From the NCBI RefSeq assembly GCF_000016745.1, contig NC_009483.1, positions 2,040,001 to 2,072,000 on the forward strand: a stretch of 32,000 nt of DNA, given 5' to 3'. A program made the translations under genes and the position numbers. Positions 3,956 to 22,838 of this stretch are shown in pieces; position 1 is the first letter of the stretch, and each line of letters begins with the position of its first letter. The notes under the pieces were generated by a model. It did no database searches and was not told the origin of the DNA. It saw only the letters and a program-made list of their open reading frames with translations. The DNA comes from Geotalea uraniireducens Rf4 (GTDB taxonomy: Bacteria; Desulfobacterota; Desulfuromonadia; Geobacterales; Geobacteraceae).

Positions 3956-4621
3956 ATGATAAGGCGGGTGTCGGCCGATGGAGGCGAAATGGAAAACCGG
4001 ATGCGAACGGGGCTGCCGGATACGGTCATCCTTGTCCACGGCCTCTGGATGACAGGGGTGGAACTTTCCCTTTTGGGGTGGCGGTTGAAACGCTGCGGTT
4101 TCGAGGTGCGTTACTTCCGTTACCGCTCCTGGCGCGGAACTCTGGATGAAGCGGCACTCCGTCTCGGCAAACTGGTCGGCAAAACCGCCGGCGAAAGGGT
4201 GCATCTTGTGGGGCACAGCCTTGGCGGGATCGTCATTGCCAGAATGTTCGAGCTGTCTCCGCCGGCAAGGGCGGGGAACGTCGCTTTCCTCGCTTCACCC
4301 ATGGGTGGGAGTGCTTTCGTAACGGCGCTTTTCCGCTGTCGAATCGGCCGTTTCATCCTTGGCAGGGTCATCGGCGAGGCGCTGATGGAGAACAGGCCGT
4401 TCTGGTCCCAGGGGAGGGACCTCCTTGTCATTGCCGGCACCTTGCCGCTCGGGTTCGGAGTGTTTTTCGGGGTGCCCTCTCCCCATGACGGGACAATAGC
4501 CGAGGCGGAAACCAGGGTGGCGAATGCCAAATCAATGCGGGTGAGGAGCTCTCACATGGGGATGGTTATTTCACCGGGAGTTGCTGAAATACTATGCAAG
4601 TTTTTCAGAGGTGATGATTGA
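3956..4621 (+). CDS. alpha/beta-fold hydrolase (lipase/esterase-like)
   Basis: 221-aa ORF with VILVHGLW and the nucleophile elbow GHSLGG. An alternative start at ATG 3989 has a GGAGG 4 nt upstream. Confidence 0.7.
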   Translation: MIRRVSADGGEMENRMRTGLPDTVILVHGLWMTGVELSLLGWRLKRCGFEVRYFRYRSWRGTLDEAALRLGKLVGKTAGERVHLVGHSLGGIVIARMFELSPPARAGNVAFLASPMGGSAFVTALFRCRIGRFILGRVIGEALMENRPFWSQGRDLLVIAGTLPLGFGVFFGVPSPHDGTIAEAETRVANAKSMRVRSSHMGMVISPGVAEILCKFFRGDD

Positions 4622-4687
4622 GGTGTCGCAGAGAAAATCTGCTAAAAAGAAATCTGGACGGGGATGCGACCGGTAAGCCTGTCTGCA

Positions 4688-4736
4688 GGCCGAAAGGTTC
4701 CGCAACCATCCGGTTCGCTTGCGGAGCCTTTCGGCC
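4688..4736. terminator. long hairpin between convergent genes (putative bidirectional terminator)
   Basis: GGCCGAAAGGtTCCGCAA...TTGCGGAgCCTTTCGGCC followed by ATATTT. It lies between the hydrolase stop (4621) and the YtxH stop (4759). Confidence 0.5.
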
Positions 4737-4758
4737 ATATTTAACTTTCGTATGCCGC

Positions 4759-5004
4759 TTATATCCAGGCGTCGCCGCCATCATACTGGAGGGCGTCTCC
4801 CTTGGTTTTTCGGCTCATCTTGAACTTTGCTTCCTTGGCGCAACATTTGAGTTTATCCAAAGCTTCCTCTTTGGCCTCACCAAGTTTTTCCCTTACCTCT
4901 TTCCCCGTTTTGGGGGTCAAGAGAAGCGTCACGCCGGCTGCGAGCACTGCGCCGGTTAAAAATGCCATCATTGCTGCGCTCTCGTTATTCCTGTTGTTTG
5001 CCAT
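4759..5004 (-). CDS. YtxH-domain small membrane-associated protein
   Basis: ORF 4759..5031 (-). The start at 5004 (MANNRNNESAAMMAFLTGAVLAAGVTLLLTPKTGKEVREKL) has an AAGGAG SD 7 nt upstream. The TPKSGKE-type motif is typical of YtxH. Confidence 0.7.
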   Translation of the reverse strand: MANNRNNESAAMMAFLTGAVLAAGVTLLLTPKTGKEVREKLGEAKEEALDKLKCCAKEAKFKMSRKTKGDALQYDGGDAWI

Positions 5005-5343
5005 GACTCCAGCTCCTTTCTGTCGCATCATGAGAAATTATCCTGTTTATTTTTAGCACATAATTTGTCCCATGAAAACCCTTTGTTGCACGTTTATTTG
5101 AGACTTTGTTCATGCGGGCAAAGATTTGGCGGGCGAAGGGGGCTGAATATCGAGCCGGTCCGGCCGATGGTAAGGATTTTCAGTTGCCGCGGATGGAAGC
5201 TTTCCCAGTTGACACCGCTCTCTTTGCGGGTGTATTAAAACGAAGATTTCTATGCCCGGGAAAGCAGGTGGGGAGCGCATGCGTCCCCTCATTTTGGATG
5301 CCGGTAAAAATAAATATTGCCGTAAATACGGAATTGCAATTAT

Positions 5344-5356
5344 GATCAAATCTGTT
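5344..5356. repeat. copy 4 (reverse orientation) of the CAGATTTGATC motif
   Basis: GATCAAATCTG at 5344-5354, 49 nt upstream of the 5405 start codon. Confidence 0.45.
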
Positions 5357-5404
5357 CGGTAGTGGGCTGTTCTTGTTTTTTGGGCTTGACCTTAATGGGG
5401 GTTG

Positions 5405-5986
5405 ATGATGAGAAGATCTTTTTTTCTGCTGTTGATGTTGCTGGTTCTGGTGCTGAATCAAACGGCTCACGCCTGTGTCGGCAAGATACTTAATATCGGC
5501 ATTCCCAACTCTGCCAATGAACAGCTCCTGGCGGAGATGATCGCGACCCTGGTCACCGAGAGGACCGGCACGACGGTGAAGATAATTGTCTATAAGGATG
5601 AACGTGAACTATATAAAGCAGTAAAAAAAGGTGATGTCGGCATTCTCATTGAAAATACCGATCATGCCATGAAGATGGTGGCCAAGCCGAGGGAGTCCAA
5701 CGCTAAAACGGCTTACGAGACGGCAAAGAGTGAATACCGGAAAAACCTGAACCTGGTCTGGCTCGATCCCCTCGTTTCGGCAAACGGTGCTGCGGGGAGC
5801 ATATATTATGCGCCGGTATTGTCGCTTGATACCCTCAGCAATCTGCCTGCCCTGCCGAAACTGATCAACAAGCTGTCCGGCATACTCAAAGAGGATGCCT
5901 ACGCGAAGCTGCTCAAATCGGTGAAATCGGACGACAAGCCGAGAAAGGTGGCAAGGGATTTTCTCAAATCTAAAAAGTTGATATGA
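5405..5986 (+). CDS. short secreted OpuAC-like (glycine betaine-binding fold) protein
   Basis: ORF 5402..5986. ATG 5405/5408 follows a GGGGG SD. Signal peptide MMRRSFFLLLMLLVLVLNQTAHA|C. The body (KILNIGIPNSANEQLLAEMIATLV...VWLDPL...PRKVARDFLKSKKLI) resembles osmoprotectant substrate-binding domains but is about 100 aa shorter. Confidence 0.45.
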   Translation: MMRRSFFLLLMLLVLVLNQTAHACVGKILNIGIPNSANEQLLAEMIATLVTERTGTTVKIIVYKDERELYKAVKKGDVGILIENTDHAMKMVAKPRESNAKTAYETAKSEYRKNLNLVWLDPLVSANGAAGSIYYAPVLSLDTLSNLPALPKLINKLSGILKEDAYAKLLKSVKSDDKPRKVARDFLKSKKLI

Positions 5987-6097
5987 TCGATTGATCCAAA
6001 GTTCCCTGATCGCCGGTCAATCATGCGCGGTAATCGATCCGTTATGGATTTTTGTTGTAACAGACTGAAGCGGTTTAGGCCGGCTGAGAGGTAACGG

Positions 6098-6412
6098 ATG
6101 TCGAAGATCTATAGAAATCCGGACGTCATGTGGCGCGAGGAGGATGAATCCAGAGAACAGGCCAATGCAGCATTGGAAAAGGGAGAAAATGCCGAGGATA
6201 TCGGGACTTCGCTCCTCTTCTCCGACGGCATGATGGTTACGCTCAACGTGCTTGGCACCGAAATATGGAAGATGTGCGATGGCAGGGAAGTGGACGAGAT
6301 TGTCGCTGAACTGCTCACGCAGTTTGACGTTGAGGCGGATGTTCTTAAAAACGATGTGGCAGGTTTCCTTGAGGAGCTTGCCGAAAAAGGATTTATCCAT
6401 TATGAGGAGTGA
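6098..6412 (+). CDS. PqqD-family peptide-binding (RRE-type) protein
   Basis: 104-aa ORF with a GAGAGG SD. The LLFSDGMMVTLNVLGTEIWKMCDGREVDEIVAELLTQFDVEADVLKNDVAGFLEELAEKGFI pattern is the PqqD winged-helix signature (L-N-x-x-G-x-x-IW, then DV-x-x-FL-x-x-L-x-x-x-G). Confidence 0.8.
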   Translation: MSKIYRNPDVMWREEDESREQANAALEKGENAEDIGTSLLFSDGMMVTLNVLGTEIWKMCDGREVDEIVAELLTQFDVEADVLKNDVAGFLEELAEKGFIHYEE

Positions 6413-7403
6413 TCCGACCCTTAAAGCGCCGCTCACCATCAACTGGGCAATCAACAATAACTGCAATTTCTTCTGCAGACACTGCTACAGCAGGAGCGAC
6501 ACAACAGAGGAACTGTCCGGCGAGGTACTCTGCGCCGCCATGAAAAGGGTCGCTGCAACAGGGGTGCTCTCCGTCAACTTCGGCGGCGGCGAGCCGCTGT
6601 TGCGCCGGGACCTGCTTGCCATCGCCTCCTGTGCAGCCGGATGCGGCATGCGGGTTTCCATGAACAGCAACGGCTACCTGATCGACGGTGAGAAGGCCGT
6701 TGCCCTGAAAAATGCCGGTTTCTCCAAGGTCGGCATCAGCATCGACAGCCATGAGGCTTTGGTCCATGACCGTTTCCGGGGAGTTGCCGGCAGCCACGAG
6801 CGGGCGGTAAACGCACTTGGCCGGCTGCGCGAAGCGGGCATCAAGACATCCATCTCCACGGTTATCTGCACCTTCAATCATGAACAGATCGACAACCTCA
6901 TCGAATTTGCCCTGGCAAACAAGGTCAGCCAGCTCAATTTCCACAACTTCAAATGCTCCGGGCTCGGCCTTGCCAACAAGGACGAGCTGGACCTGACCCC
7001 TGTTCAGTGGCAGGAGTTTTACCGCAAGGCGCTGCGGGCGAAAGAACAGGTCAAGGAGCTGGACATCTCCCTCGACGACCCGATCATCGCCTCCCTCGGT
7101 CTGAAGAGCGGCAGCAGCCTGGTGAAGGGGAGCGTCTGCGGCAAGCTCTCCCTCAACATCAAATCCAACGGCGACATCACCCCCTGCGGTTTCATCCCCG
7201 TCGTCATCGGCAATATCATCCGCGATGACCTGAAAGAGATCTGGGACAACTCACCGGTACTGGAGAGACTGCGCCACAAAACCCCGACCGGCAAATGCGC
7301 CTCGTGCAGCGACTACGGTGAATGTCTCGGCGGTTGCAGCGCTCGGGCTCTGGCCATGACCGGCGATTTCAACAGCCCTGATCCCCACTGCTGGGTACCA
7401 TGA
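6402..7403 (+). CDS. radical SAM / SPASM-domain maturase
   Basis: ATG 6402 overlaps the PqqD stop by 11 nt. CNFFCRHC (CxxxCxxC) is near the N-terminus and GGGEPLL follows. C-terminal SPASM pattern: CGKLSLNIKSNGDITPC ... CASCSDYGECLGGC ... HC. The track ORF starts at 6252, but that extension lies inside pqqD. Confidence 0.85.
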   Translation: MRSDPTLKAPLTINWAINNNCNFFCRHCYSRSDTTEELSGEVLCAAMKRVAATGVLSVNFGGGEPLLRRDLLAIASCAAGCGMRVSMNSNGYLIDGEKAVALKNAGFSKVGISIDSHEALVHDRFRGVAGSHERAVNALGRLREAGIKTSISTVICTFNHEQIDNLIEFALANKVSQLNFHNFKCSGLGLANKDELDLTPVQWQEFYRKALRAKEQVKELDISLDDPIIASLGLKSGSSLVKGSVCGKLSLNIKSNGDITPCGFIPVVIGNIIRDDLKEIWDNSPVLERLRHKTPTGKCASCSDYGECLGGCSARALAMTGDFNSPDPHCWVP

Positions 7404-8296
7404 ATCTTACCGAATTGAAAACGCCGATCCGCCTTTACTGGGACCTGCCGTCACACCCGGCTGACACAAACCTGGATTATCCGGGTATCTGCGAGCAGAT
7501 CATCTCGCTCAGGATACTGAGCCTCGGTATAACTGAAACGGCCCCCGCCGTGAGCGACGGCTGTCTGGCGATTCTGGAGAGGCTCAAAAAGCAGCCCATT
7601 GCCACATCCCTTACCGTTTCTTCTTCTGTGCTAGACACTGCTGCCCTGTCCCTCCTTCACGGCTTTAACGTCCGCCTGCTCCTGGTCCGGGCCTCCACCC
7701 TGGACGACCTGCGGGTAGTGCCCCGGCTGAAGACTTCCGATGGGGCAAAGCCACAGCTCGGTGTTTCCTTTGAGGTCAGCGCTGATAATTTCGGAATCCT
7801 GCCGGAGGTATTGTCCTATTGCGTGGAGAACGGCATCCAGCACCTGGTCCTTCCCATGCAACGGTTGAAGGCAGGCGATGATTGCTTTCAGCTGGGCAGG
7901 TCCGAGCGTGAATCGCTCTCCTCAAATCTTGCCGGGATCGACCGGCCCGCCACCATGAAGATCACTATCCACGACCCGTTTCTCTGGCGGGTGTTTTTCC
8001 CCAGCGTCTCCTTTCCCGACGGTAGTTGCCAGGCGGCAAACACCATGCTTTATATTGCCGGGAACGGCGACGTCCATCCTTGCCCTACCTTGCCGTACAA
8101 GCTCGGCAATCTTGCCGGCACTACATTGCGTGCGATTGTTGAATCAACTGGAAAAAAAGAGTTGAGGGAAAGGCTCATCAATCCCCCTGCGGGGTGCGCA
8201 TGCTGCGCTGAGCTGGATCAATGCCGGGGCGGCTGCCGCGGTAGGGGATATTTTCTGACGGAATCGTGGGATGAGGCCGATCCGGGCTGTCTTTGA
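7400..8296 (+). CDS. SPASM-domain protein lacking the radical SAM CxxxCxxC motif (paralog of the upstream gene)
   Basis: ATGA start/stop overlap at 7400-7403. 298 aa with no CxxxCxxC in the N-terminal half. C-terminal pattern: CQAANTMLYIAGNGDVHPC ... CACCAELDQCRGGC ... PGC. Confidence 0.75.
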   Translation: MNLTELKTPIRLYWDLPSHPADTNLDYPGICEQIISLRILSLGITETAPAVSDGCLAILERLKKQPIATSLTVSSSVLDTAALSLLHGFNVRLLLVRASTLDDLRVVPRLKTSDGAKPQLGVSFEVSADNFGILPEVLSYCVENGIQHLVLPMQRLKAGDDCFQLGRSERESLSSNLAGIDRPATMKITIHDPFLWRVFFPSVSFPDGSCQAANTMLYIAGNGDVHPCPTLPYKLGNLAGTTLRAIVESTGKKELRERLINPPAGCACCAELDQCRGGCRGRGYFLTESWDEADPGCL

Positions 8297-8328
8297 TTTG
8301 CCAGGAGCCGCGGCACCCGTGTTTCGGC

Positions 8329-8637
8329 TTATTTCGCCGGCGTTTTTTTCTCGCTTGTGGTGGGCCGGTCCATTTCCATTGGAACAAGGGCGATCTCAAT
8401 ACGGCGGTTAAGCTTCCTCCCCTTTTGGGTGTTGTTGGAAGCCGCCGGTTGGTTGGGACCGTAACCTGTCAGGGCAAGAAGCTTCGGATTTATCTTTCCC
8501 TTCTTCTGCAGGTGCTTGACCTGAGCATCTCTTGCTTTACAAATCAAGGTTGTATGGGGTATCTTGTGGCCTGATAAATACCGAATACCTGGCCAAACTT
8601 GTTGATGATTTAACGCAGAACTTTGAACGTAGAACAT
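8329..8637 (-). pseudogene. OmpA/MotB C-terminal domain remnant (degenerate, N-terminal part missing)
   Basis: The tail of ORF 8329..9003 (-) reads ...LSGHKIPHTTLICKARDAQVKHLQKKGKINPKLLALTGYGPNQPAASNNTQKGRKLNRRIEIALVP, with the OmpA_C hallmarks GYG..P, NRR and EI. The YN..LS segment appears only in another frame (PYNLDL), suggesting a 1-nt indel. Upstream sequence runs into the mutL start. Confidence 0.4.
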
Positions 8638-8662
8638 AGAACTATGTAGTACGAGGTTTGCC

Positions 8663-10471
8663 GTGGCCACACGCATCAAGATACTTCCCGAAAACCTGAC
8701 CAACAAGATTGCCGCCGGCGAGGTGGTGGAACGCCCCGCATCGGTGGTGAAGGAACTGGTGGAGAACGCCCTTGACGCCGGCTGTTCCGAGGTGGTGGTG
8801 GAGATCGAGGCAGGTGGGAGGCGGCTGATCAAGGTCACTGACTCCGGTTGCGGCATGACCCGGGAGGATGCCCTCCTGGCTCTGGAACGCCATGCCACCA
8901 GCAAGATAGCCAGCGACAGCGACCTGTTCGGCCTGGCTACCCTCGGCTTTCGCGGCGAGGCGCTCCCCTCCATTGCTTCTGTTTCCCGTTTCGCTCTCGC
9001 CACCAGGGAAAAAGGGGCAATCGAAGGAACGGAGATCTACGCCGAAGGGGGGCGGGTCAAGGAGGTCAAGGTCTGCGGCATGGCCGAAGGGACCGTGATT
9101 TCGGTGCGGAACCTGTTTTTCAACACCCCGGCGCGGCTGAAGTTCATGAAGAGCAGCGACACCGAGGCGGGGCACGTGGGGGATCTCCTCACCAAGCTGG
9201 CCATTTCCCGGCCCGATGTGCGCTTTATCTACAACAACGACGGCAGGACCATATTCCGGGCGCTGGATGCCGACCTGCGCGAGCGGGTGGCGACTCTCCT
9301 CGGCCGGGCACTGTCGGCCGACCTCTATCCGCTCGATTTTCACGACGGCCCGCTCGGCGTTACCGGATTGATCGCCAAACCGGAATGCAGCCGCTCTGCG
9401 GCTTCCCACCTATACACATACATCAACGGCCGCTTCATCAAGGACAAGGTGGTGCAGCATGCCGTGCTTCAGGCTTACCGCAACTTCATGGAGCGCGGCC
9501 GCTACCCGGTGGTGGTGCTGTTCATCACTGTTCCGGCCGATGAGGTGGATGTGAACGTCCATCCGACCAAGCACGAGGTCAGATTCCGCGAGCAGGGGAG
9601 GGTGCACGACGCCATCCAGGCGGCGTTGGAGTCGGTCCTGCGCGCCACCCCCTGGGTGCGGAAGCAGGCAGCGCCGCAACCGTTCGCTTCCCCCCCGCCG
9701 GCATCGGAGGCAAGCGCGACACGAGTTGCCGAGGTACGGGAGACCCTTGCCAGGTACAGCCCGGAAAAGCATCTGCAGCAGTCCTTTACGGTGCCGCCTG
9801 CTGCGACATTCCAGCGGCAGCAAGGCGCTGTCTCGCTTCCCGTTGCGGCCAGGGAAGACGATACCGCGTCAGACAAGACGGAGTCGAAGGGCTATTATTG
9901 TTCGCTTTCGGTTATCGGCCAGTTCAATGCTGCCTATATCCTCTGTCAGGATGGCACTGACCTGGTGATCATCGACCAGCACGCCGCCCACGAGCGGGTC
10001 GCCTTTGAAAAACTCAAGGCGCAGTTTGCCGCGGCACAAGTGGAGTCGCAACGGCTGCTTTTTCCCGAGACCATCGAGCTTTCTTTCAAGGAAGGGGCGA
10101 CTCTCAGGGAGCATCTGGCTGAACTGGGCAGGCTCGGTTTTTCCCTGGAGGAATTCGGCGGCGCAACCTGGCTGTTGAACGCCGTCCCCCGTCTCTTGAG
10201 CGGCACGGACTACCTGCGCACCCTGAGGGATATCCTCGAAGAGTTGCAAACTCTCGGCAGAAGCCGTACCTTTGCCGATGCACTGGAAGAAATCCTTTCC
10301 CGCATCGCCTGTCACAGTGTGGTGCGGGGCATCCATCCCCTGAACGGGCAGGAGATCAGTGCCCTCTTTGCCCAGATGGATGCCACCGAGTTTTCCAGCA
10401 ACTGCCCCCACGGCAGGCCGGTGCTGCGCAGCTTGACCCTTCCCGAGATCGAGCGGATGTTTAAAAGGTAG
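8663..10471 (+). CDS. mutL: DNA mismatch repair endonuclease MutL
   Basis: 602-aa ORF with a GTG start. N-terminus: IKILPENLTNKIAAGEVVERPASVVKELVENALDAG (GHKL ATPase). C-terminus: DQHAAHERV ... CPHGRP endonuclease motifs. Confidence 0.92.
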   Translation: MATRIKILPENLTNKIAAGEVVERPASVVKELVENALDAGCSEVVVEIEAGGRRLIKVTDSGCGMTREDALLALERHATSKIASDSDLFGLATLGFRGEALPSIASVSRFALATREKGAIEGTEIYAEGGRVKEVKVCGMAEGTVISVRNLFFNTPARLKFMKSSDTEAGHVGDLLTKLAISRPDVRFIYNNDGRTIFRALDADLRERVATLLGRALSADLYPLDFHDGPLGVTGLIAKPECSRSAASHLYTYINGRFIKDKVVQHAVLQAYRNFMERGRYPVVVLFITVPADEVDVNVHPTKHEVRFREQGRVHDAIQAALESVLRATPWVRKQAAPQPFASPPPASEASATRVAEVRETLARYSPEKHLQQSFTVPPAATFQRQQGAVSLPVAAREDDTASDKTESKGYYCSLSVIGQFNAAYILCQDGTDLVIIDQHAAHERVAFEKLKAQFAAAQVESQRLLFPETIELSFKEGATLREHLAELGRLGFSLEEFGGATWLLNAVPRLLSGTDYLRTLRDILEELQTLGRSRTFADALEEILSRIACHSVVRGIHPLNGQEISALFAQMDATEFSSNCPHGRPVLRSLTLPEIERMFKR

Positions 10472-10479
10472 TGAAAGGC

Positions 10480-10576
10480 GGTCGGTGGTCGGTGGTCGGT
10501 GGTCGGTGGTCGGTGGTCGGTGGTCGGTGGTCGGTCGGCAGTGGATGGTGGATGGTGATGTTGATGGTCGATGGTG
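10480..10576. repeat. heptanucleotide tandem array: (GGTCGGT)x8 perfect (10480-10535), then degenerate GGATGGT/GATGGTC units
   Basis: Read directly from the sequence. It begins 9 nt after the mutL stop and runs into the probable miaA start region. Confidence 0.9.
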
Positions 10577-11874: not shown

Positions 11875-12948
11875 ATGAACAATAAAGAAAAATTCCTGGC
11901 CGTTCTTGCCGGGCTTTTATGCATAGGCGCAATCATTCTGGTTTATTTTTCGGTGACCATTTTCCTGCCGGTGTTTATAGCCCTGATCCTTACTTATATC
12001 CTCAATCCGCTCGTCGTCATGCTCGTGAAGAGGGGGATGAACCGGACAGTGGCCATCATTGCCGTTTTTTGTTTCCTCGTTCTTCTGGCAATGCTTACCG
12101 GCTTCCTCTTTATCAGCTCTCTGAAGGCCGAATTCAGCACCGTGCAGATAAACCTGCCGGAATACGCCGGCCGGCTTTATGGGTACATTCCCGGAGAGGT
12201 CAAGACCTATCTGGATATCGAAACTCCCGCAAAGGCCTACCAGCACCTGAACGCCGCACTGGAAGAGCTGCGCGGCATCTCTTTCAACCTGTTCAAAGAG
12301 ACCTTTGCAGTCGTTACCCGGGCCTTCAGCTCTACCCTTGCCTTTATCCTTGCCGTGCTCGGCTATTTCATCACCCCGATCTATCTTTACTATTTCCTCA
12401 GCGACCTGTCCGAAATGAAAAGCGGTATGCTCGACCTCATCCCCGAACGCCACCGGGACCGGTTGCGGGAGAGAGTAGGTGAGGTCAATGAGGTCTTGTC
12501 CGCCTTTGTTTGCGGCCAGTTGTCGGTCTGCGCCATCCTTGCCGTGCTCTACAGCATCGGCCTTTATGTTATCGGCATCGACCTGGCGGTGCTGATCGGA
12601 ACGCTGGCGGGCGCCCTGTTCATCATCCCCTATTTCGGCACCATCCTCGGCATAATTTTCTCCATGACCATGGCGCTGCTCAAATTCCACGACTTTCTCC
12701 ACCCGCTTCTCTGCCTGGGCTGGTTCGCCCTGGTTCAGGCTGCGGAAGGAGGGATCATTACCCCGAAAATCGTCGGGGACAAGGTCGGCCTGCACCCAAT
12801 CATCACCATTCTGGCGCTACTGATCGGCGGCCAGTTGTTCGGCATTTTCGGCATGCTCCTGGCGGTGCCGGTGACCGCTGTTTTGAACGTATTTTTCCGC
12901 TCGCTGCTCGATTATTACCGGAGAACAGCCTACTATAAAGGTGCCTGA
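11875..12948 (+). CDS. AI-2E family transporter (PerM/YhhT-like permease)
   Basis: 357-aa polytopic membrane ORF with the family-typical C-terminal region ...EGGIITPKIVGDKVGLHPIITILALLIGGQLFGIFGMLLAVP. Confidence 0.8.
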   Translation: MNNKEKFLAVLAGLLCIGAIILVYFSVTIFLPVFIALILTYILNPLVVMLVKRGMNRTVAIIAVFCFLVLLAMLTGFLFISSLKAEFSTVQINLPEYAGRLYGYIPGEVKTYLDIETPAKAYQHLNAALEELRGISFNLFKETFAVVTRAFSSTLAFILAVLGYFITPIYLYYFLSDLSEMKSGMLDLIPERHRDRLRERVGEVNEVLSAFVCGQLSVCAILAVLYSIGLYVIGIDLAVLIGTLAGALFIIPYFGTILGIIFSMTMALLKFHDFLHPLLCLGWFALVQAAEGGIITPKIVGDKVGLHPIITILALLIGGQLFGIFGMLLAVPVTAVLNVFFRSLLDYYRRTAYYKGA

Positions 12949-14240
12949 TGGACGGATTACTCATTGAAAAAGTCATGCCCGGCAGCGTTGCCTCCGAGCT
13001 GGAAATAGAGGCGGGTGATCGGCTCCTGGCCATAAACGGCCACCGGTTGCGGGATATAATCGACTATAACTTTTTCTCGGCCGATGAGGAACTGACCCTG
13101 GAAGTGGTCAAAAGCGACGGCGAGGTGTGGGAGATCGAGGTCGAACGGGATGAGTCCGAGCCGCTCGGCCTGATGTTCCCGGCGCCGGTTCCGGCCCAGT
13201 GCGGCAACAAGTGCGTTTTTTGTTTCGTTCACCAACTTCCCAAAGGGCTGCGCGCACCGCTCTATGTGAAAGATGAGGATTATCGCCTATCCTTTTTGTA
13301 CGGCAATTACGTCACCCTTGCCAACATCGGTCGTGCGGAGGTCGAACGGATCAAAGAACAGCGACTGTCGCCGCTTTACATCTCCGTTCACGCAACCGAT
13401 CCCCTGTTGCGGGAAAAGCTGCTCGGCAAGTCCGGGATCGTTCCGATCCTTGAGGTTATGGAGGAGCTTGCCGCTGCCCGCATCACCATGCACACCCAGG
13501 TAGTGCTCTGCCCCGGAATCAATGACGGCAGTTTCCTGGAGCAGACGGTCAATGACCTGGCGGCCCTTTATCCCCTGGTTGCCTCGCTGGCGGTGGTGCC
13601 GTTGGGATTGACCCGGCATCGCAAAGGTCTGCCGGAGCTGCGACCGGTGACCAGTGACTACGCCGCCGACCTGATTGCAGCCTGGCAACCGCGTGCGAAG
13701 GAGCTTGCCGGGCGGTTGGGCGAACCGTTTCTCTTCTTCGCCGACGAGTTTTTCATCAAGGCCGGCCTTCCGTTTCCTCCCATTGAGGAGTACGGGGATT
13801 TTCACCAGGTGGAAAACGGGGTAGGGATGGTGCCGCTCTTTCTCGATGAGGCCGCCGAAGTTCTCGACCAGGCTCAACCTTTGCAGCCCGCTACGATTAC
13901 CGTTGTCACCGGCGAGTCACCTTATCAGTATCTTAGCGATTTCCTCCGCAACCTGGGGCAAAAAACCGGCATTACCTTTCGTCCAGTGGCGATCAGAAAT
14001 CGTCTGTTCGGCGATAGTGTCACCGTTACCGGTCTGGTTTCCGGTCGGGATATCATTGACGGTCTCCGGGAGGTGGAGGTCGGGGATTTGGTCCTGATCC
14101 CCGATGTGATGTTGAAAGAGGGGGAGGGTGTGTTTCTCGACGACTTGTCTGTGGCCGATCTGCAGGATGCCTTGCACAAGGAAATAGTTGTTGTGGAATC
14201 GACGCCGTGGGGAATATACCGGGCGATTACCGGGGTTTAG
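12948..14240 (+). CDS. PDZ-domain protein with radical-SAM-like Cys motif (DUF512 family)
   Basis: The ATG overlaps the upstream stop (TGATG). N-terminal PDZ (GSVASELEIEAGDRLLAINGHRL), then CGNKCVFCF (CxxxCxxC). Overall layout resembles DUF512 proteins. Confidence 0.7.
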   Translation: MDGLLIEKVMPGSVASELEIEAGDRLLAINGHRLRDIIDYNFFSADEELTLEVVKSDGEVWEIEVERDESEPLGLMFPAPVPAQCGNKCVFCFVHQLPKGLRAPLYVKDEDYRLSFLYGNYVTLANIGRAEVERIKEQRLSPLYISVHATDPLLREKLLGKSGIVPILEVMEELAAARITMHTQVVLCPGINDGSFLEQTVNDLAALYPLVASLAVVPLGLTRHRKGLPELRPVTSDYAADLIAAWQPRAKELAGRLGEPFLFFADEFFIKAGLPFPPIEEYGDFHQVENGVGMVPLFLDEAAEVLDQAQPLQPATITVVTGESPYQYLSDFLRNLGQKTGITFRPVAIRNRLFGDSVTVTGLVSGRDIIDGLREVEVGDLVLIPDVMLKEGEGVFLDDLSVADLQDALHKEIVVVESTPWGIYRAITGV

Positions 14241-14277: not shown

Positions 14278-15144
14278 ATGCAAAATTCTTGGACGGCTGT
14301 ACCGCTATTTCTTATGCGGCTTGGTCTGGCGCTCTTCTTTCTGCTGTCGCTTCCGAGGGGGGGAGAATGTCACGCCGAGCGATCGGTTCTCAGGGTCAGT
14401 GACCGAAAGATAATCAGCTTCAGTCGGATGATGGACGAAATCAAGGGCACCCAGGTGGTGGTTATCGGCGAAAACCACGACAACCCCGAACATCATCAAT
14501 TGCAGCTTGACGTCATTGACGCTTTCCATCAGGCAGACAGACCGCTGGTGATAGGTCTGGAGATGTTCAACGCCGACAATCAGCGGCAGCTCGACCGCTG
14601 GATTGCGGGAAAACTGGACAAACCGAGCTTTATCCGACTCTATTACGACAACTGGCGGATGCCGTGGTCTTTGTACAGTGAAATTTTCCTCTATGCCCGT
14701 GACCATGGGATTCCGCTTCTAGGTCTTAACATTGAGCAGGGTATACCCCAGAAAGTGGCACGCCGGGGATTTGGATCGCTTACGCGCAAAGAATTGAAAA
14801 AAGTGCCATCCGGCATCACCTGTGATGTGGATGCTGCCTACATGGCGTTCATAAGACGTGCCTATACAACCCACACCAGGGACGAGAAATCCTTTGTCCA
14901 TTTCTGTGAAGCCCAGAAATTGTGGAACGTGGCAATGGCTTCGCGAATCATCGGTTATTTTGAAAAGCATGTCGGACAAACCATGGTGGTTCTTACTGGG
15001 ACAGGCCATGCGCTGAAAAGGGGAATGCCTGCGGAGATAGGGCAGTCCTCGCATCTGACATATAAGGTTATACTCCCGGAATTTCCTGAAATGGCAAGGA
15101 AAGACGTTACAGTTAACGACGCTGATTACATGATTCTGGAGTGA
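14278..15144 (+). CDS. ChaN-family (haem-binding uptake/Tiki-like) secreted protein
   Basis: Signal peptide, then VVVIGENHDNPEHHQLQLDVI...IGLEMF...QRQLDRW, characteristic of the ChaN family. Confidence 0.7.
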   Translation: MQNSWTAVPLFLMRLGLALFFLLSLPRGGECHAERSVLRVSDRKIISFSRMMDEIKGTQVVVIGENHDNPEHHQLQLDVIDAFHQADRPLVIGLEMFNADNQRQLDRWIAGKLDKPSFIRLYYDNWRMPWSLYSEIFLYARDHGIPLLGLNIEQGIPQKVARRGFGSLTRKELKKVPSGITCDVDAAYMAFIRRAYTTHTRDEKSFVHFCEAQKLWNVAMASRIIGYFEKHVGQTMVVLTGTGHALKRGMPAEIGQSSHLTYKVILPEFPEMARKDVTVNDADYMILE

Positions 15145-18854: not shown

Positions 18855-20156
<1,302 letters not shown>

Positions 20157-20272
20157 TCATTGATAGTGGACAGGCTTCGTTGCCTGCAATAACAAACAAG
20201 ACTATATATCACACTTTCACATAAATGGAAGCAGTTTTGTAAATGTTCGTTAACGCTGAAAAATGGTTTAAG

Positions 20273-20301
20273 TTGACAGTATGCGGGGATAGGGATATAT
20301 T
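20273..20301 (+). promoter_or_regulatory. sigma70-type promoter candidate for the pgpH-like operon
   Basis: TTGACA (20273-20278), a 17-nt spacer, then TATATT (20296-20301), about 115 nt upstream of the first candidate start. Confidence 0.55.
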
Positions 20302-20414
20302 AAACGCTTGTCTATGACCTGTTTACCGCAAAAAATCTTAACGGAACAGGCTACGTTTCTCATGGGAAACTAACTGTAACAAGGCTGTCGTCGCTCAACC
20401 TTTAATAAGGTGGG

Positions 20415-22838
20415 GTGCCGATCACGGGAATAACACTCAGAATGCCCACTGAAAGCGGCGATAACGAAAAACAAATTAAAGGTTCGCTTGTATTGCTTGG
20501 CGAAACCTGCCTGGACTCATTACTGGAGAGGTTTTCCGGTGCGAAGCACGAAAAACGGAACCGCTTCATTCTCCTCTTTTTTACCGCATTTTTCCTTACC
20601 CTACTGATTATTCCCAGCAGTCAGTTCAACGTTGTTAAATATAAGGCCGGCGATATCGCAACGTCGGATATCAGGGCCACCCAGGACTATCTTCTGGAGG
20701 ACCGCCCCCTTACCGAGAAGAAGCGTTCCGAGGCCGGTAATGCTGCTCCCTTCGTCTATAATTTTAATGCCGGTGCCCCGCTAGACGTTACCCGGCGTTT
20801 CGAGAAGTCAATGGCCCTGGTCCGCGAGGCGCGGGAGGGTGACAAAGAAATGTCCGGCGATACTCTCCTGCGGAATCTCGACGGCGCTTTGCAGTTGGAC
20901 CTTTCTGCCGCCGAGGCGGCAACCCTCGCCAGGATAAAGTCGGACCAGGTGCTGTTGGCCGAGATAAGCCGTGTCACCGCGGCCCTTTACCGGCAGAAGG
21001 TAGTCGCCGATAAAAAGGGGTTTACTGCCGACCGGAACCACGGTCTACTCGTTACCGACCTGGAAACAAAACGTGAGGTTGCTGCCGGCGATTACTCCCT
21101 CTATGTGGATCTGGTTGATGGACGGAAGGCCCTTGCCGGGATGAAGATCGCCATTGGCGCTTCCCCCCGCGATGTGGAGGTCATAAAGGGGGTGCTGTCC
21201 AGGATGATAGCCCCCAGTCTTACCTTCGACCGTGAGGCGACTGATCAATTGAGGCATGAAGCGAAAGCTGCCGTGCGTCCCGTCCTGTTCCAGTTGAAGA
21301 GGGGGGAGATGATTGTCCGGGTGGGCGAGCGGATTACCCAGGAACAGGCGATGAAGCTGGAGAATATCTTCGAGTCCCGTGGCATTAACCGGTTCTTCAT
21401 GGGGGTCGGCATACTGGGGCTGGTGCTGGTGCTTTTCTACTTTCCGTACCGTTTCGCCCGCAAGAACATCCGCAAGTTCGACCCTTCCAATAAGGACATA
21501 CTGCTCCTTACCTTGCTGACCATAGGCAACTTTCTGTTACTGAAGATAACATTTGCCGTATCTACTGCGATGGGGGGGCTCTTCCCCTTTATTGACACCG
21601 CCGACTATTACTACCTTTTTCCTTTTGCAGCCAGTGCCATCATCGTGCGCATTATTATCAATTCCGAGGTGGCCCTCGTTTATTGCGCCATTTGCGCGCC
21701 GCTCCTGGGGATGATGTTCAACAACAGCCTTCAGGTGGTCGTTTACGCCCTCCTGGGGGGAATCGTCGGGGCACACGGCGTTCGTCAGTGCAAGGAGAGA
21801 GGGGCCATTTATACGGCCGGCTTGAAGGTGAGCGTGGTGAATGTTGCCATGGCGGTTTCTTTCCAGTTTTTCAGTGACAATGCCTTTACCATGCAGACCG
21901 TTTACTGCGTGGTTTTTGCCTTGGTCGGGGGTATTATCAACGCTGCCTATGCCACCGGCGCCATTCCCCTGATCGAGACCCTGTTCCACTATACCACCGA
22001 CATCAAGCTGCTGGAACTGGCCAACCTCAATACTCCCATTCTCAGGGAGCTCATGATCCGTGCACCCGGTACTTACCATCACAGCGTGGTGGTGGGAAAT
22101 CTGGTTGAGGCCGGTGCCGAGGCGATCAATGCCAATCCCCTTCTGGCAAGGGTAGCTGCCTACTATCACGATGTGGGGAAGATCAGCAAGCCCCTCTACT
22201 TCATCGAAAACGTCGGAGGTGGTGAAAACCGCCACGACAAGCTTTCTCCGAGCATGAGTGCCCTGATCCTCATCTCCCATGTCAAGGAAGGGGCGGAACT
22301 GGCCAGGGAGAACCGCCTTGGCCAGCCGATCATAGATATTATCCGTCAGTCCCACGGTACGTCGCTCATCACCTTTTTTTATCAGAAAGCCAAGAGCCTT
22401 GTGATCTCGGATGCGCAGGGGGTGGAAGAGAAGGATTTCCGCTATCCCGGCCCCAAGCCGCAGACCCGTGAAGCGGGACTGGTCCTTTTAGCCGACTGTG
22501 TCGAGGCAGCCTCCAGGACCTTGACTGATCCGACCCCCGCTCGCATCCAGGGGATGGTGCAGAAGATCATCAACAACATCTTCATCGACGGCCAACTGGA
22601 TGAGTGCGAGCTGACCCTGAAAAATCTCCATGAAATTGCCAAGAGCTTTAACCGGATACTTGCCGGCATCTATCATCACCGTATAGATTACCCCGAACCG
22701 GTTTTCAAAGACAAGGGTAGCGGAGGAAAGAAAAACCTTGAAAATAGCTATAGCGAACCGGCAAAGACGCTGGCCGATCGAGGCGAAGAAACTAAGAAAA
22801 GTGGCGGAGAAGATCTTAAGCGCCTTGGAATGTCCTGA
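20415..22838 (+). CDS. 7TM receptor with intracellular HD-domain phosphohydrolase (PgpH/YqfF-like)
   Basis: 807-aa ORF. Extracellular N-terminal part, a block of about 7 TM segments, then HHSVVVGNLVEAGAEAI...AAYYHDVGK...SHVKEG (HD domain). The start is uncertain (GTG 20415 or ATG 20442). Synteny with ybeY-dgkA matches the Bacillus yqfF-ybeY-dgkA order. Confidence 0.8.
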   Translation: MPITGITLRMPTESGDNEKQIKGSLVLLGETCLDSLLERFSGAKHEKRNRFILLFFTAFFLTLLIIPSSQFNVVKYKAGDIATSDIRATQDYLLEDRPLTEKKRSEAGNAAPFVYNFNAGAPLDVTRRFEKSMALVREAREGDKEMSGDTLLRNLDGALQLDLSAAEAATLARIKSDQVLLAEISRVTAALYRQKVVADKKGFTADRNHGLLVTDLETKREVAAGDYSLYVDLVDGRKALAGMKIAIGASPRDVEVIKGVLSRMIAPSLTFDREATDQLRHEAKAAVRPVLFQLKRGEMIVRVGERITQEQAMKLENIFESRGINRFFMGVGILGLVLVLFYFPYRFARKNIRKFDPSNKDILLLTLLTIGNFLLLKITFAVSTAMGGLFPFIDTADYYYLFPFAASAIIVRIIINSEVALVYCAICAPLLGMMFNNSLQVVVYALLGGIVGAHGVRQCKERGAIYTAGLKVSVVNVAMAVSFQFFSDNAFTMQTVYCVVFALVGGIINAAYATGAIPLIETLFHYTTDIKLLELANLNTPILRELMIRAPGTYHHSVVVGNLVEAGAEAINANPLLARVAAYYHDVGKISKPLYFIENVGGGENRHDKLSPSMSALILISHVKEGAELARENRLGQPIIDIIRQSHGTSLITFFYQKAKSLVISDAQGVEEKDFRYPGPKPQTREAGLVLLADCVEAASRTLTDPTPARIQGMVQKIINNIFIDGQLDECELTLKNLHEIAKSFNRILAGIYHHRIDYPEPVFKDKGSGGKKNLENSYSEPAKTLADRGEETKKSGGEDLKRLGMS

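Follow-up and report, generated by a model that had tools for sequence, protein, structure and literature searches.

What does a PqqD-type chaperone present to a radical S-adenosylmethionine (SAM) enzyme when no precursor gene stands beside them? The question is raised by three overlapping genes at positions 6098-8296 of a 32,000-nucleotide (nt) stretch of the Geotalea uraniireducens Rf4 chromosome (NC_009483.1, positions 2,040,001 to 2,072,000; the whole stretch is called the window below). A first-pass annotation, made from the sequence alone, had described them as an orphan cassette with no visible substrate gene and had noted that protein-family curators know such a trio as the GeoRSP system. 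Profile matches identify the trio as a true copy of this curated system, and comparison with related loci points to the window as a deletion derivative of a full GeoRSP cluster. The product of the gene immediately upstream (5408-5986, plus strand) emerges as the best candidate for the missing substrate.

The trio and its curated family

The three genes are contiguous on the plus strand and coupled by overlaps, exactly as had been described. The first open reading frame (ORF1, 6098-6412) encodes a PqqD-family chaperone of 104 amino acids (aa), the second (ORF2, 6402-7403) the catalytic subunit, a radical SAM/SPASM enzyme of 333 aa, and the third (ORF3, 7400-8296) a SPASM protein of 298 aa that is a full-length pseudo-radical-SAM paralog of the enzyme. 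ORF2 begins at the ATG at 6402 (MRSDPTLKAPLT...), which gives an 11-nt overlap with ORF1 (6402-6412), and its start residues, M-R/K-S-D/E-x-TLKAPLT, recur in three related genomes. ORF3 begins within the ATGA at 7400-7403 and overlaps ORF2 by 4 nt. The same order was found in related loci wherever a contig spans all three genes.

Each protein matched its own GeoRSP model of the NCBIfam collection from end to end: ORF1 scored 195.6 bits with TIGR04302 (cut-off 100, E 1e-58, positions 1-102 of 102), ORF2 686.6 bits with TIGR04303 (cut-off 400, E 6e-207, positions 1-325 of 325), and ORF3 536.4 bits with TIGR04304 (cut-off 300, E 1e-161, positions 1-293 of 293). Homologs carry the name "GeoRSP system SPASM domain protein" in several source databases, and the name given in the first-pass annotation is thereby confirmed. 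The Pfam matches are in line with this, namely PqqD (PF05402) at 70.4 bits for ORF1, Radical_SAM (PF04055) at 92.7 bits and SPASM at 40.7 bits for ORF2, and SPASM at 31.5 bits for ORF3; the possibility, allowed for earlier, that ORF1 would match no PqqD or RiPP recognition element (RRE) model did not materialize. The system is thus known to curators but uncharacterised, and the family libraries used here list no substrate for it; a literature search retrieved no publication mentioning GeoRSP.

ORF2 has the features that had been read from its sequence. It contains NNNCNFFCRHCYSR, with the cluster motif CNFFCRHC, and the radical SAM cysteines C21, C25 and C28 as well as FGGGEPL, the GGE SAM-binding motif, are invariant among 57 sequences. 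All seven SPASM cysteines (C246, C262, C299, C302, C308, C312 and C330) are also invariant, and so are two additional ones, C156 and C185, which lie beyond this 3 + 7 pattern. The solved structure closest to ORF2 is PqqE (6c8v, E 1e-21), with SkfB and SuiB also among the nearest by sequence.

ORF2 belongs to none of the next-best radical SAM families, because its scores fall far below their cut-offs: 185 bits with NirJ2 (cut-off 500), 182 with AhbD (500), 161.4 with MftC (265) and 120.6 with PqqE (381). Placement in a haem-type family, an outcome that the first-pass annotation had named as speaking against peptide or protein maturation, was not obtained, as NirJ2 and AhbD reached some 185 bits where 500 were required. 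Membership among the haem and haem d1 enzymes as a whole (AhbC/D, NirJ, NirJ1/2) was rejected on scores of 133-185 bits with cut-offs of 500-650. Membership in the pyrroloquinoline quinone (PQQ) or mycofactocin pathways was likewise rejected, the PqqE, PqqD and MftC scores all being below cut-off (ORF1 reached 41.5 bits with the NCBIfam PqqD model, cut-off 46) and no PqqA or MftA gene being present. A role as prokaryotic viperin in defence was discarded as well; the pVip match was limited to the radical SAM core (residues 12-212, 93 bits), the protein matching SPASM and GeoRSP models instead, and PADLOC run on the window proteins found nothing beyond generic viperin-core similarity.

The third protein had been described as a paralog that keeps the SPASM cysteines and has no CxxxCxxC, and the analysis bore this out. 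ORF3 lacks CxxxCxxC and keeps seven SPASM cysteines (210, 228, 266, 269, 275, 279 and 297), all invariant in a 29-sequence alignment (A1). A profile-profile alignment with hhalign of 58 SPASM-only proteins with 57 radical SAM proteins extended over the full length (probability 99.8, E 8e-27) and left a 15-residue gap in the ORF3 family exactly at the CxxxCxxC loop of the enzyme; the GGE motif is lost too, the FGGGEPL of the enzyme being aligned to ITETAPAV. The N-terminal 200 aa of ORF3 alone still aligned to the radical SAM family (probability 95.3, E 2e-8). Finally, the AlphaFold2 (AF2) model of ORF3 (predicted local distance difference test [pLDDT] 89.3, predicted template modelling score 0.88) is compact, with low confidence at residues 1-7, and superposes over the whole chain on SuiB, anSME, PqqE, CteB and SkfB. 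The full-length profile alignment, the gap at the loop and the whole-chain superposition together mark ORF3 as a paralog of ORF2; its sequence predicts that it binds auxiliary Fe-S clusters and is unable to hold the SAM-cleaving one. In one draft genome, that of Geotalea toluenoxydans JCM 15764 (locus L023, 6960-8801), enzyme and pseudo-enzyme read as a single ORF of 613 aa, through a natural fusion or else through a sequencing frameshift at the ATGA-type junction; other genes of this locus are split.

Precursor search and the gene upstream of the trio

Related loci were gathered from Geobacterales/Desulfuromonadota and Nitrospirota/Thermodesulfovibrionia, 60 at species level and 11 metagenomic; cultured strains whose draft genomes carry the system include Geotalea toluenoxydans JCM 15764, Geomobilimonas luticola JCM 17780 and Geobacter sp. 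AOG1. The window and the 65 loci fetched first, 66 sequences in all, were then scanned for tiny ORFs. On the operon strand the scan of 61 sequences gave no conserved ORF of 25-90 aa, and that of the 403 intergenic gaps of all 66 gave none of 10-60 aa; the ORF clusters that did appear were alternative-frame artefacts and unrelated antisense fragments only. The genes around PqqD abut tightly, and the spacer before it, regarded as a leader in the first-pass annotation, measures 111 nt in the window (5987-6097), 93 nt in L064 and 30 nt in both L001 and L065. The only small upstream ORF of the window (5252-5362) was dismissed as a precursor, its start lying in a 37-nt indel that is missing from L001 and L065. 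Rfam searches of 4600-8800 at permissive thresholds gave no credible regulatory RNA. For small ORFs, then, the statement that no substrate gene is visible holds across all the loci scanned. It had overlooked, however, a larger co-conserved gene immediately upstream.

These scans bear on the main rival to the view developed below, namely that GeoRSP is a pathway for a ribosomally synthesized and post-translationally modified peptide (RiPP) or a peptide cofactor, with a tiny precursor that is encoded in trans or is undetectably small or divergent, an exporter of the ArsP or major facilitator superfamily (MFS) type, and the upstream protein as a periplasmic receptor or carrier. A PqqD/RRE protein, here with 70.4 bits to PF05402, is a hallmark of leader-peptide recognition, and the radical SAM enzyme is extremely conserved across two phyla, in which it resembles PqqE and MftC. 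Those enzymes act on conserved precursors of about 23-30 aa, which are often missed by gene callers. Against it stands the lack of any conserved ORF of at least 10 aa on the operon strand in the 403 gaps, and a trans-encoded precursor would be unusual for PqqD-dependent systems. GeoRSP shares with PQQ and mycofactocin a stand-alone PqqD-type chaperone and a highly conserved radical SAM/SPASM enzyme, but those pathways have an adjoining short precursor gene, whereas GeoRSP has none and possesses an extra pseudo-radical-SAM paralog. We regard this explanation as possible, though rather unlikely.

The gene at 5408-5986 (plus strand; alternative starts TTG 5402 and ATG 5405) encodes a 192-aa protein that is predicted to be exported and to consist of a single OpuAC-like lobe (family "cl1"). 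Pfam OpuAC matches it in two stretches that omit profile positions 87-185, and no NCBIfam family reached its cut-off. The AF2 model (pLDDT 88.5) comprises an N-terminal helix, the putative signal peptide, and one alpha/beta lobe; the pLDDT falls to less than 50 at residues 19-23, just before the cysteine discussed below, and has a mean of about 66 for the segment that ends at residue 30. Foldseek returned OpuBC, OpuAC, ProX and EgtU with template modelling scores of about 0.76 normalized to the query and about 0.54 to the target, a difference which implies that the protein corresponds to one lobe of a two-lobed binding protein. The likeness to OpuAC, ProX and EgtU is thus one of fold and Pfam match; those proteins have about 270 aa and two lobes, in contrast to 192 aa and one lobe here, and the N-terminal cysteine motif is invariant in the candidate. 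A conventional two-lobed ATP-binding cassette (ABC) substrate-binding protein was excluded on these grounds, there being one lobe only and no ABC permease or ATPase gene beside it in the window. The ligand-binding-protein fold would suit the receptor that a RiPP pathway might employ; a single lobe, however, is unable to close around a ligand as binding proteins usually do.

The most striking feature of the family lies directly behind the predicted signal peptide. The sequence C-V-G occupies positions +1 to +3 in 163 of 163 distinct members and is followed by K or R; in the window the cysteine is encoded by the TGT at 5474-5476 (plus strand) and is the predicted residue +1 after cleavage by signal peptidase I (A-H-A|C). 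Position -1 is A or S in 162 of the 163 and position -3 is A or S in 132 and L in 6, with mostly D, Q, G, S, H, E or N at -2. In 122 members, the window protein included, the invariant cysteine is the only one. The predicted A/S-x-A/S site points to signal peptidase I and does not resemble a lipobox; a lipoprotein (L-[ASTVI]-[GAS]-C) was accordingly rejected, the residues at -3 and -2 being those of an AxA site.

This family is also the most persistent neighbour of the trio. It is encoded on the same strand within the 8-kb upstream flank in 54 of 66 loci, and ten of the twelve absences coincide with contig cuts, leaving 54 of 56 informative loci in which the gene is kept with the trio. In the reverse direction, all three long contigs that were seeded from the upstream protein carry the trio 3.3-3.8 kb downstream, and the two families are of comparable size (311 clusters for the upstream protein, 399 for the pseudo-enzyme).

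Full clusters and the reduced clade

Neighbour clustering and annotation with hidden Markov models placed the trio mostly inside a cluster of 10-13 genes in Geobacterales and Nitrospirota. In Geobacterales it typically starts with genes for a NosD-like beta-helix protein, a CarboxypepD_reg/Big_1 protein, the OpuAC-like protein of about 186 aa and a ResB-like membrane protein. Its middle part consists of either an ArsP-type permease and a cupin, or a NicO/DsbD-like protein, a TPR protein, a small NosD-like protein and sometimes an MFS transporter. PqqD, the radical SAM/SPASM enzyme and the pseudo-enzyme follow, and after them come, in some loci, an FmdE/zinc-ribbon protein, then a PhnD-like binding protein, a 180-aa protein and YedE (TIGR04112, 402 bits). 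Nitrospirota have the same modules in shuffled order. An example is L059:101-11991, and L046, L044, L061, L062 and L066-L068 are similar; CbiMQO genes adjoin the cluster of L062. Very large multihaem cytochromes (GSu_C4xC__C2xCH motifs) and giant fn3/He_PIG/Big_9 surface proteins are often encoded at the flanks of full clusters (L061:14226-20453; L066:1-5559 and 19596-20612; L067:1-1415).

Judged by its content, the cluster may be connected with the handling of selenium/sulfur or of Ni/Co/Cu, and YedE proteins of the TIGR04112 family are statistically tied to selenium utilisation (PMC5322559). In L069 (2-3557), a divergent PqqD with 39% identity to that of the window directly follows a binding-protein/179-aa/YedE module and precedes a radical SAM gene, so that the association with YedE reaches outside the core GeoRSP clade. 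Such neighbours might mean that the substrate is no peptide but a tetrapyrrole-like or metal/chalcogen small molecule, as with AhbD and NirJ, with PqqD as a scaffold and the neighbouring transport of Ni/Co/Cu and S/Se supplying or removing the metal or chalcogen. The ResB-like, NicO, CbiMQO, NosD-like and TIGR04112 YedE genes of full clusters would suit this, as would the selenium association, the L069 arrangement and the fact that the best radical SAM models after GeoRSP are NirJ2 and AhbD, slightly ahead of MftC. The scores with the haem families are nevertheless far too low for their cut-offs of 500-650, no siroheme, ahb, nir or chelatase genes were found in any GeoRSP cluster annotated, the nearest solved structures belong to enzymes that mature peptides or proteins, and the reduced loci described below have no such transport genes nearby. 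PqqD-family proteins, moreover, are known only as peptide binders. On balance a non-peptide substrate seems improbable.

Another protein of the system could also be the substrate. The 105-aa cupin adjoins PqqD in 43 of 66 loci and the FmdE/zinc-ribbon protein follows the trio in 16, and the tight translational coupling of the trio would suit an enzyme that acts on its own pseudo-radical-SAM paralog. Were it the cupin or FmdE, the cassette in the window would have to serve a copy encoded elsewhere. Both are missing, however, from the NicO-TPR-NosD-MFS type of cluster and from the reduced clade, in both of which the trio is conserved, and the model of the pseudo-enzyme is compact and confident except for residues 1-7. 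We consider a substrate of this kind quite improbable.

The reduced clade consists of the window, L001, L064 and L065, where the OpuAC-like gene is followed by the trio only, the other cluster genes having gone from both sides and from between. In L062, whose pseudo-enzyme is 71% identical to that of the window, the corresponding chromosomal site, likewise upstream of mutL-miaA-hfq, holds a full cluster, CbiMQO and YedE module included. On this comparison the window is a deletion derivative of the full cluster; a tblastn search of it with the L062 cluster proteins detected no remnants as deletion scars. The term "orphan" did not survive the comparison, as the trio is what remains of a large conserved cluster and appears to share an operon with a co-conserved gene for an exported protein.

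The genes that remain seem to be functional. All four ORFs are intact in the four genomes, with synonymous divergence (dS) of up to about 0.4-0.7, and the ratios of nonsynonymous to synonymous divergence (dN/dS) are 0.12-0.22 for the OpuAC-like gene, 0.05-0.17 for PqqD, 0.10-0.17 for the radical SAM enzyme and 0.12-0.21 for the pseudo-enzyme, compared with 0.07-0.18 for mutL as a control. These values indicate that the four genes are under purifying selection. It might be argued from the loss of at least 8-10 neighbouring genes relative to L062 that the cassette of the window is a decaying, nonfunctional leftover. With dN/dS of 0.05-0.22, as in mutL, with four intact ORFs in four genomes, and with all invariant cysteines and motifs and a promoter-like block upstream retained, we deem this very improbable. 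The reduced loci bear on the RiPP explanation as well. In its favour, every full cluster has a transporter gene, alone or together with the cupin gene, immediately before PqqD; the reduced clade has no exporter beside the trio, yet the binding-protein gene has been kept under selection.

A conserved promoter-like block before the first gene and a weak terminator-like site after the last lead us to regard 5408-8296 as a four-gene operon. The block, TTGACA-18 nt-TATTAA at 5209-5238 (plus strand), was read directly, lies in the most conserved part of the upstream region and is invariant in the four-genome alignment A4; it is a predicted element and was missed by a consensus promoter scan. That scan proposed instead TTGCCG-18-TATGAT at 5317-5346 (plus strand, 9/12), a site that is partly conserved in A4 and of a kind about equally frequent in shuffled sequence. 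Between the first block and the first gene lies a leader of about 160 nt (5209-5404 with the block), which carries the 37-nt indel between relatives and has no Rfam match. A weak terminator-like hairpin with a T-run was found by pattern scan at 8324-8340 (plus strand), 28 nt past the last stop; it is only suggestive, the scan having returned 9 sites with 5.1 expected.

Downstream, the stretch between the cassette and mutL (8297-8662) is unique to the window, apart from about 50 nt upstream of mutL that are shared with relatives. A minus-strand ORF of 103 aa at 8329-8640 has no Pfam match; in L064 and L065 this place is taken by two minus-strand genes, one of 74 aa and one for an amino-acid kinase. 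A perfect (GGTCGGT)x8 repeat at 10480-10535, continued by a degenerate 6-7-nt repeat to 10577, sits in the spacer that separates the stop of mutL (10471) from what is probably the true start of miaA; in L064 this spacer measures only about 18 nt. Synteny with L064 further identifies a second, unrelated radical SAM gene at 12948-14240 (PDZ, Radical_SAM_2 and DUF512), followed by a gene for a Cofac_haem_bdg protein at 14278-15144.

A proposed maturation pathway

We propose, tentatively and at somewhat less than even probability, that the GeoRSP trio is a cytoplasmic maturase of the 5408-5986 pre-protein, which it would modify before Sec export. The upstream protein is the candidate because it has been retained with the trio, under selection, after every other cluster gene was lost, and maturase-type chemistry is suggested because the nearest solved relatives (PqqE, SkfB and SuiB, with anSME and CteB for ORF3) modify peptides or proteins. 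Enzymes of the radical SAM class generate a 5'-deoxyadenosyl radical at the CxxxCxxC cluster, here C21/C25/C28; SPASM clusters contact the substrate, move electrons or do both, and PqqD-type proteins present an extended peptide. By analogy, the PqqD-like protein would hold the unfolded N-terminal stretch of the pre-protein, and the enzyme would cleave SAM at the C21/C25/C28 cluster and abstract a hydrogen atom from the substrate. The pseudo-enzyme, with its two predicted auxiliary Fe-S sites, might serve beside it as an electron relay, a substrate clamp or both. The modification would fall at or near the invariant A|C-V-G-K/R, directly behind the signal peptide, and after Sec export and cleavage by signal peptidase I the modified Cys-1 would form the free N-terminus of the protein in the periplasm, where in full clusters the matured protein may work with the NosD-like, ResB-like and metal/chalcogen transport proteins. 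The upstream protein as the substrate, the site and chemistry of its modification and the role of the pseudo-enzyme are all things that we only infer.

Several observations weigh against this proposal. In full clusters the candidate gene lies 3-6 kb from the trio, between the CarboxypepD_reg/Big_1 and ResB-like genes, so that the protein could simply belong to this periplasmic module and bind the product. The signal peptides of the family are not conserved in sequence except for the cleavage region, so that they offer no obvious leader motif to PqqD, itself highly conserved. One locus that covers the region, L055, lacks the candidate gene, and L050 is borderline. A search of 1.84 billion representatives gave no informative PqqD fusion, near relatives being stand-alone proteins of about 100-110 aa, and a selenocysteine at the invariant position found no support, as no TGA occurs at this codon in the fetched loci (TGT 44, TGC 9). 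Moreover, the "lost" genes were judged at the locus only and may reside elsewhere in the genomes of the reduced clade.

Whole proteins are known as targets of related enzymes. The anSME enzymes, which act on sulfatases, and QhpD, which acts on QhpC, are radical SAM/SPASM enzymes that modify full-length proteins in the cytoplasm prior to export. They resemble the proposed case in acting at a Cys-containing site of a whole protein, and in structure anSME is one of the best matches for the ORF3 model; they differ in having neither a PqqD partner nor a pseudo-enzyme partner, and the sulfatase motif of anSME, C/S-x-P/A-x-R, differs from the C-V-G-K/R of the candidate. The closest architectural analogy to the mechanism is the HXS system, in which the small HxsD and the radical SAM pair HxsB/HxsC mature HxsA, a signal-peptide-bearing protein that acts in the periplasm (PMC13128918). 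Here too a small accessory protein and a paralogous pair with the radical SAM fold accompany a protein with a signal peptide. Both Hxs enzymes, however, retain their SAM clusters, the HxsD family is not PqqD, HxsA is a peptidoglycan-binding repeat protein, and the function of HXS is anti-phage defence. With respect to GeoRSP elsewhere (TIGR04302/04303/04304), the trio of the window is identical in members, order and contiguity, and differs in its context, which is reduced to four genes.

More general, and more doubtful than the proposal for this locus, is the idea that GeoRSP is a protein-maturation rather than a RiPP system, in which the Cys-1 region becomes a peptidyl cofactor or a metal/chalcogen site for periplasmic Se/S or metal machinery (NosD-like, ResB-like, YedE) in Geobacterales and Nitrospirota; we think it possible, if unlikely. 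What is new here is the wider cluster, a natural deletion series and a concrete candidate substrate for GeoRSP. Within a larger envelope-associated cluster the trio appears to form the cytoplasmic core, and one exported protein of that cluster persists after all other deletions. If our proposal is true, the system would be a PqqD-dependent addition to the few cases of radical SAM enzymes that mature whole exported proteins, it would provide a function for a pseudo-radical-SAM partner, and it might tie radical SAM chemistry to the selenium/sulfur transport of the YedE type, as yet poorly understood, in metal-reducing bacteria.

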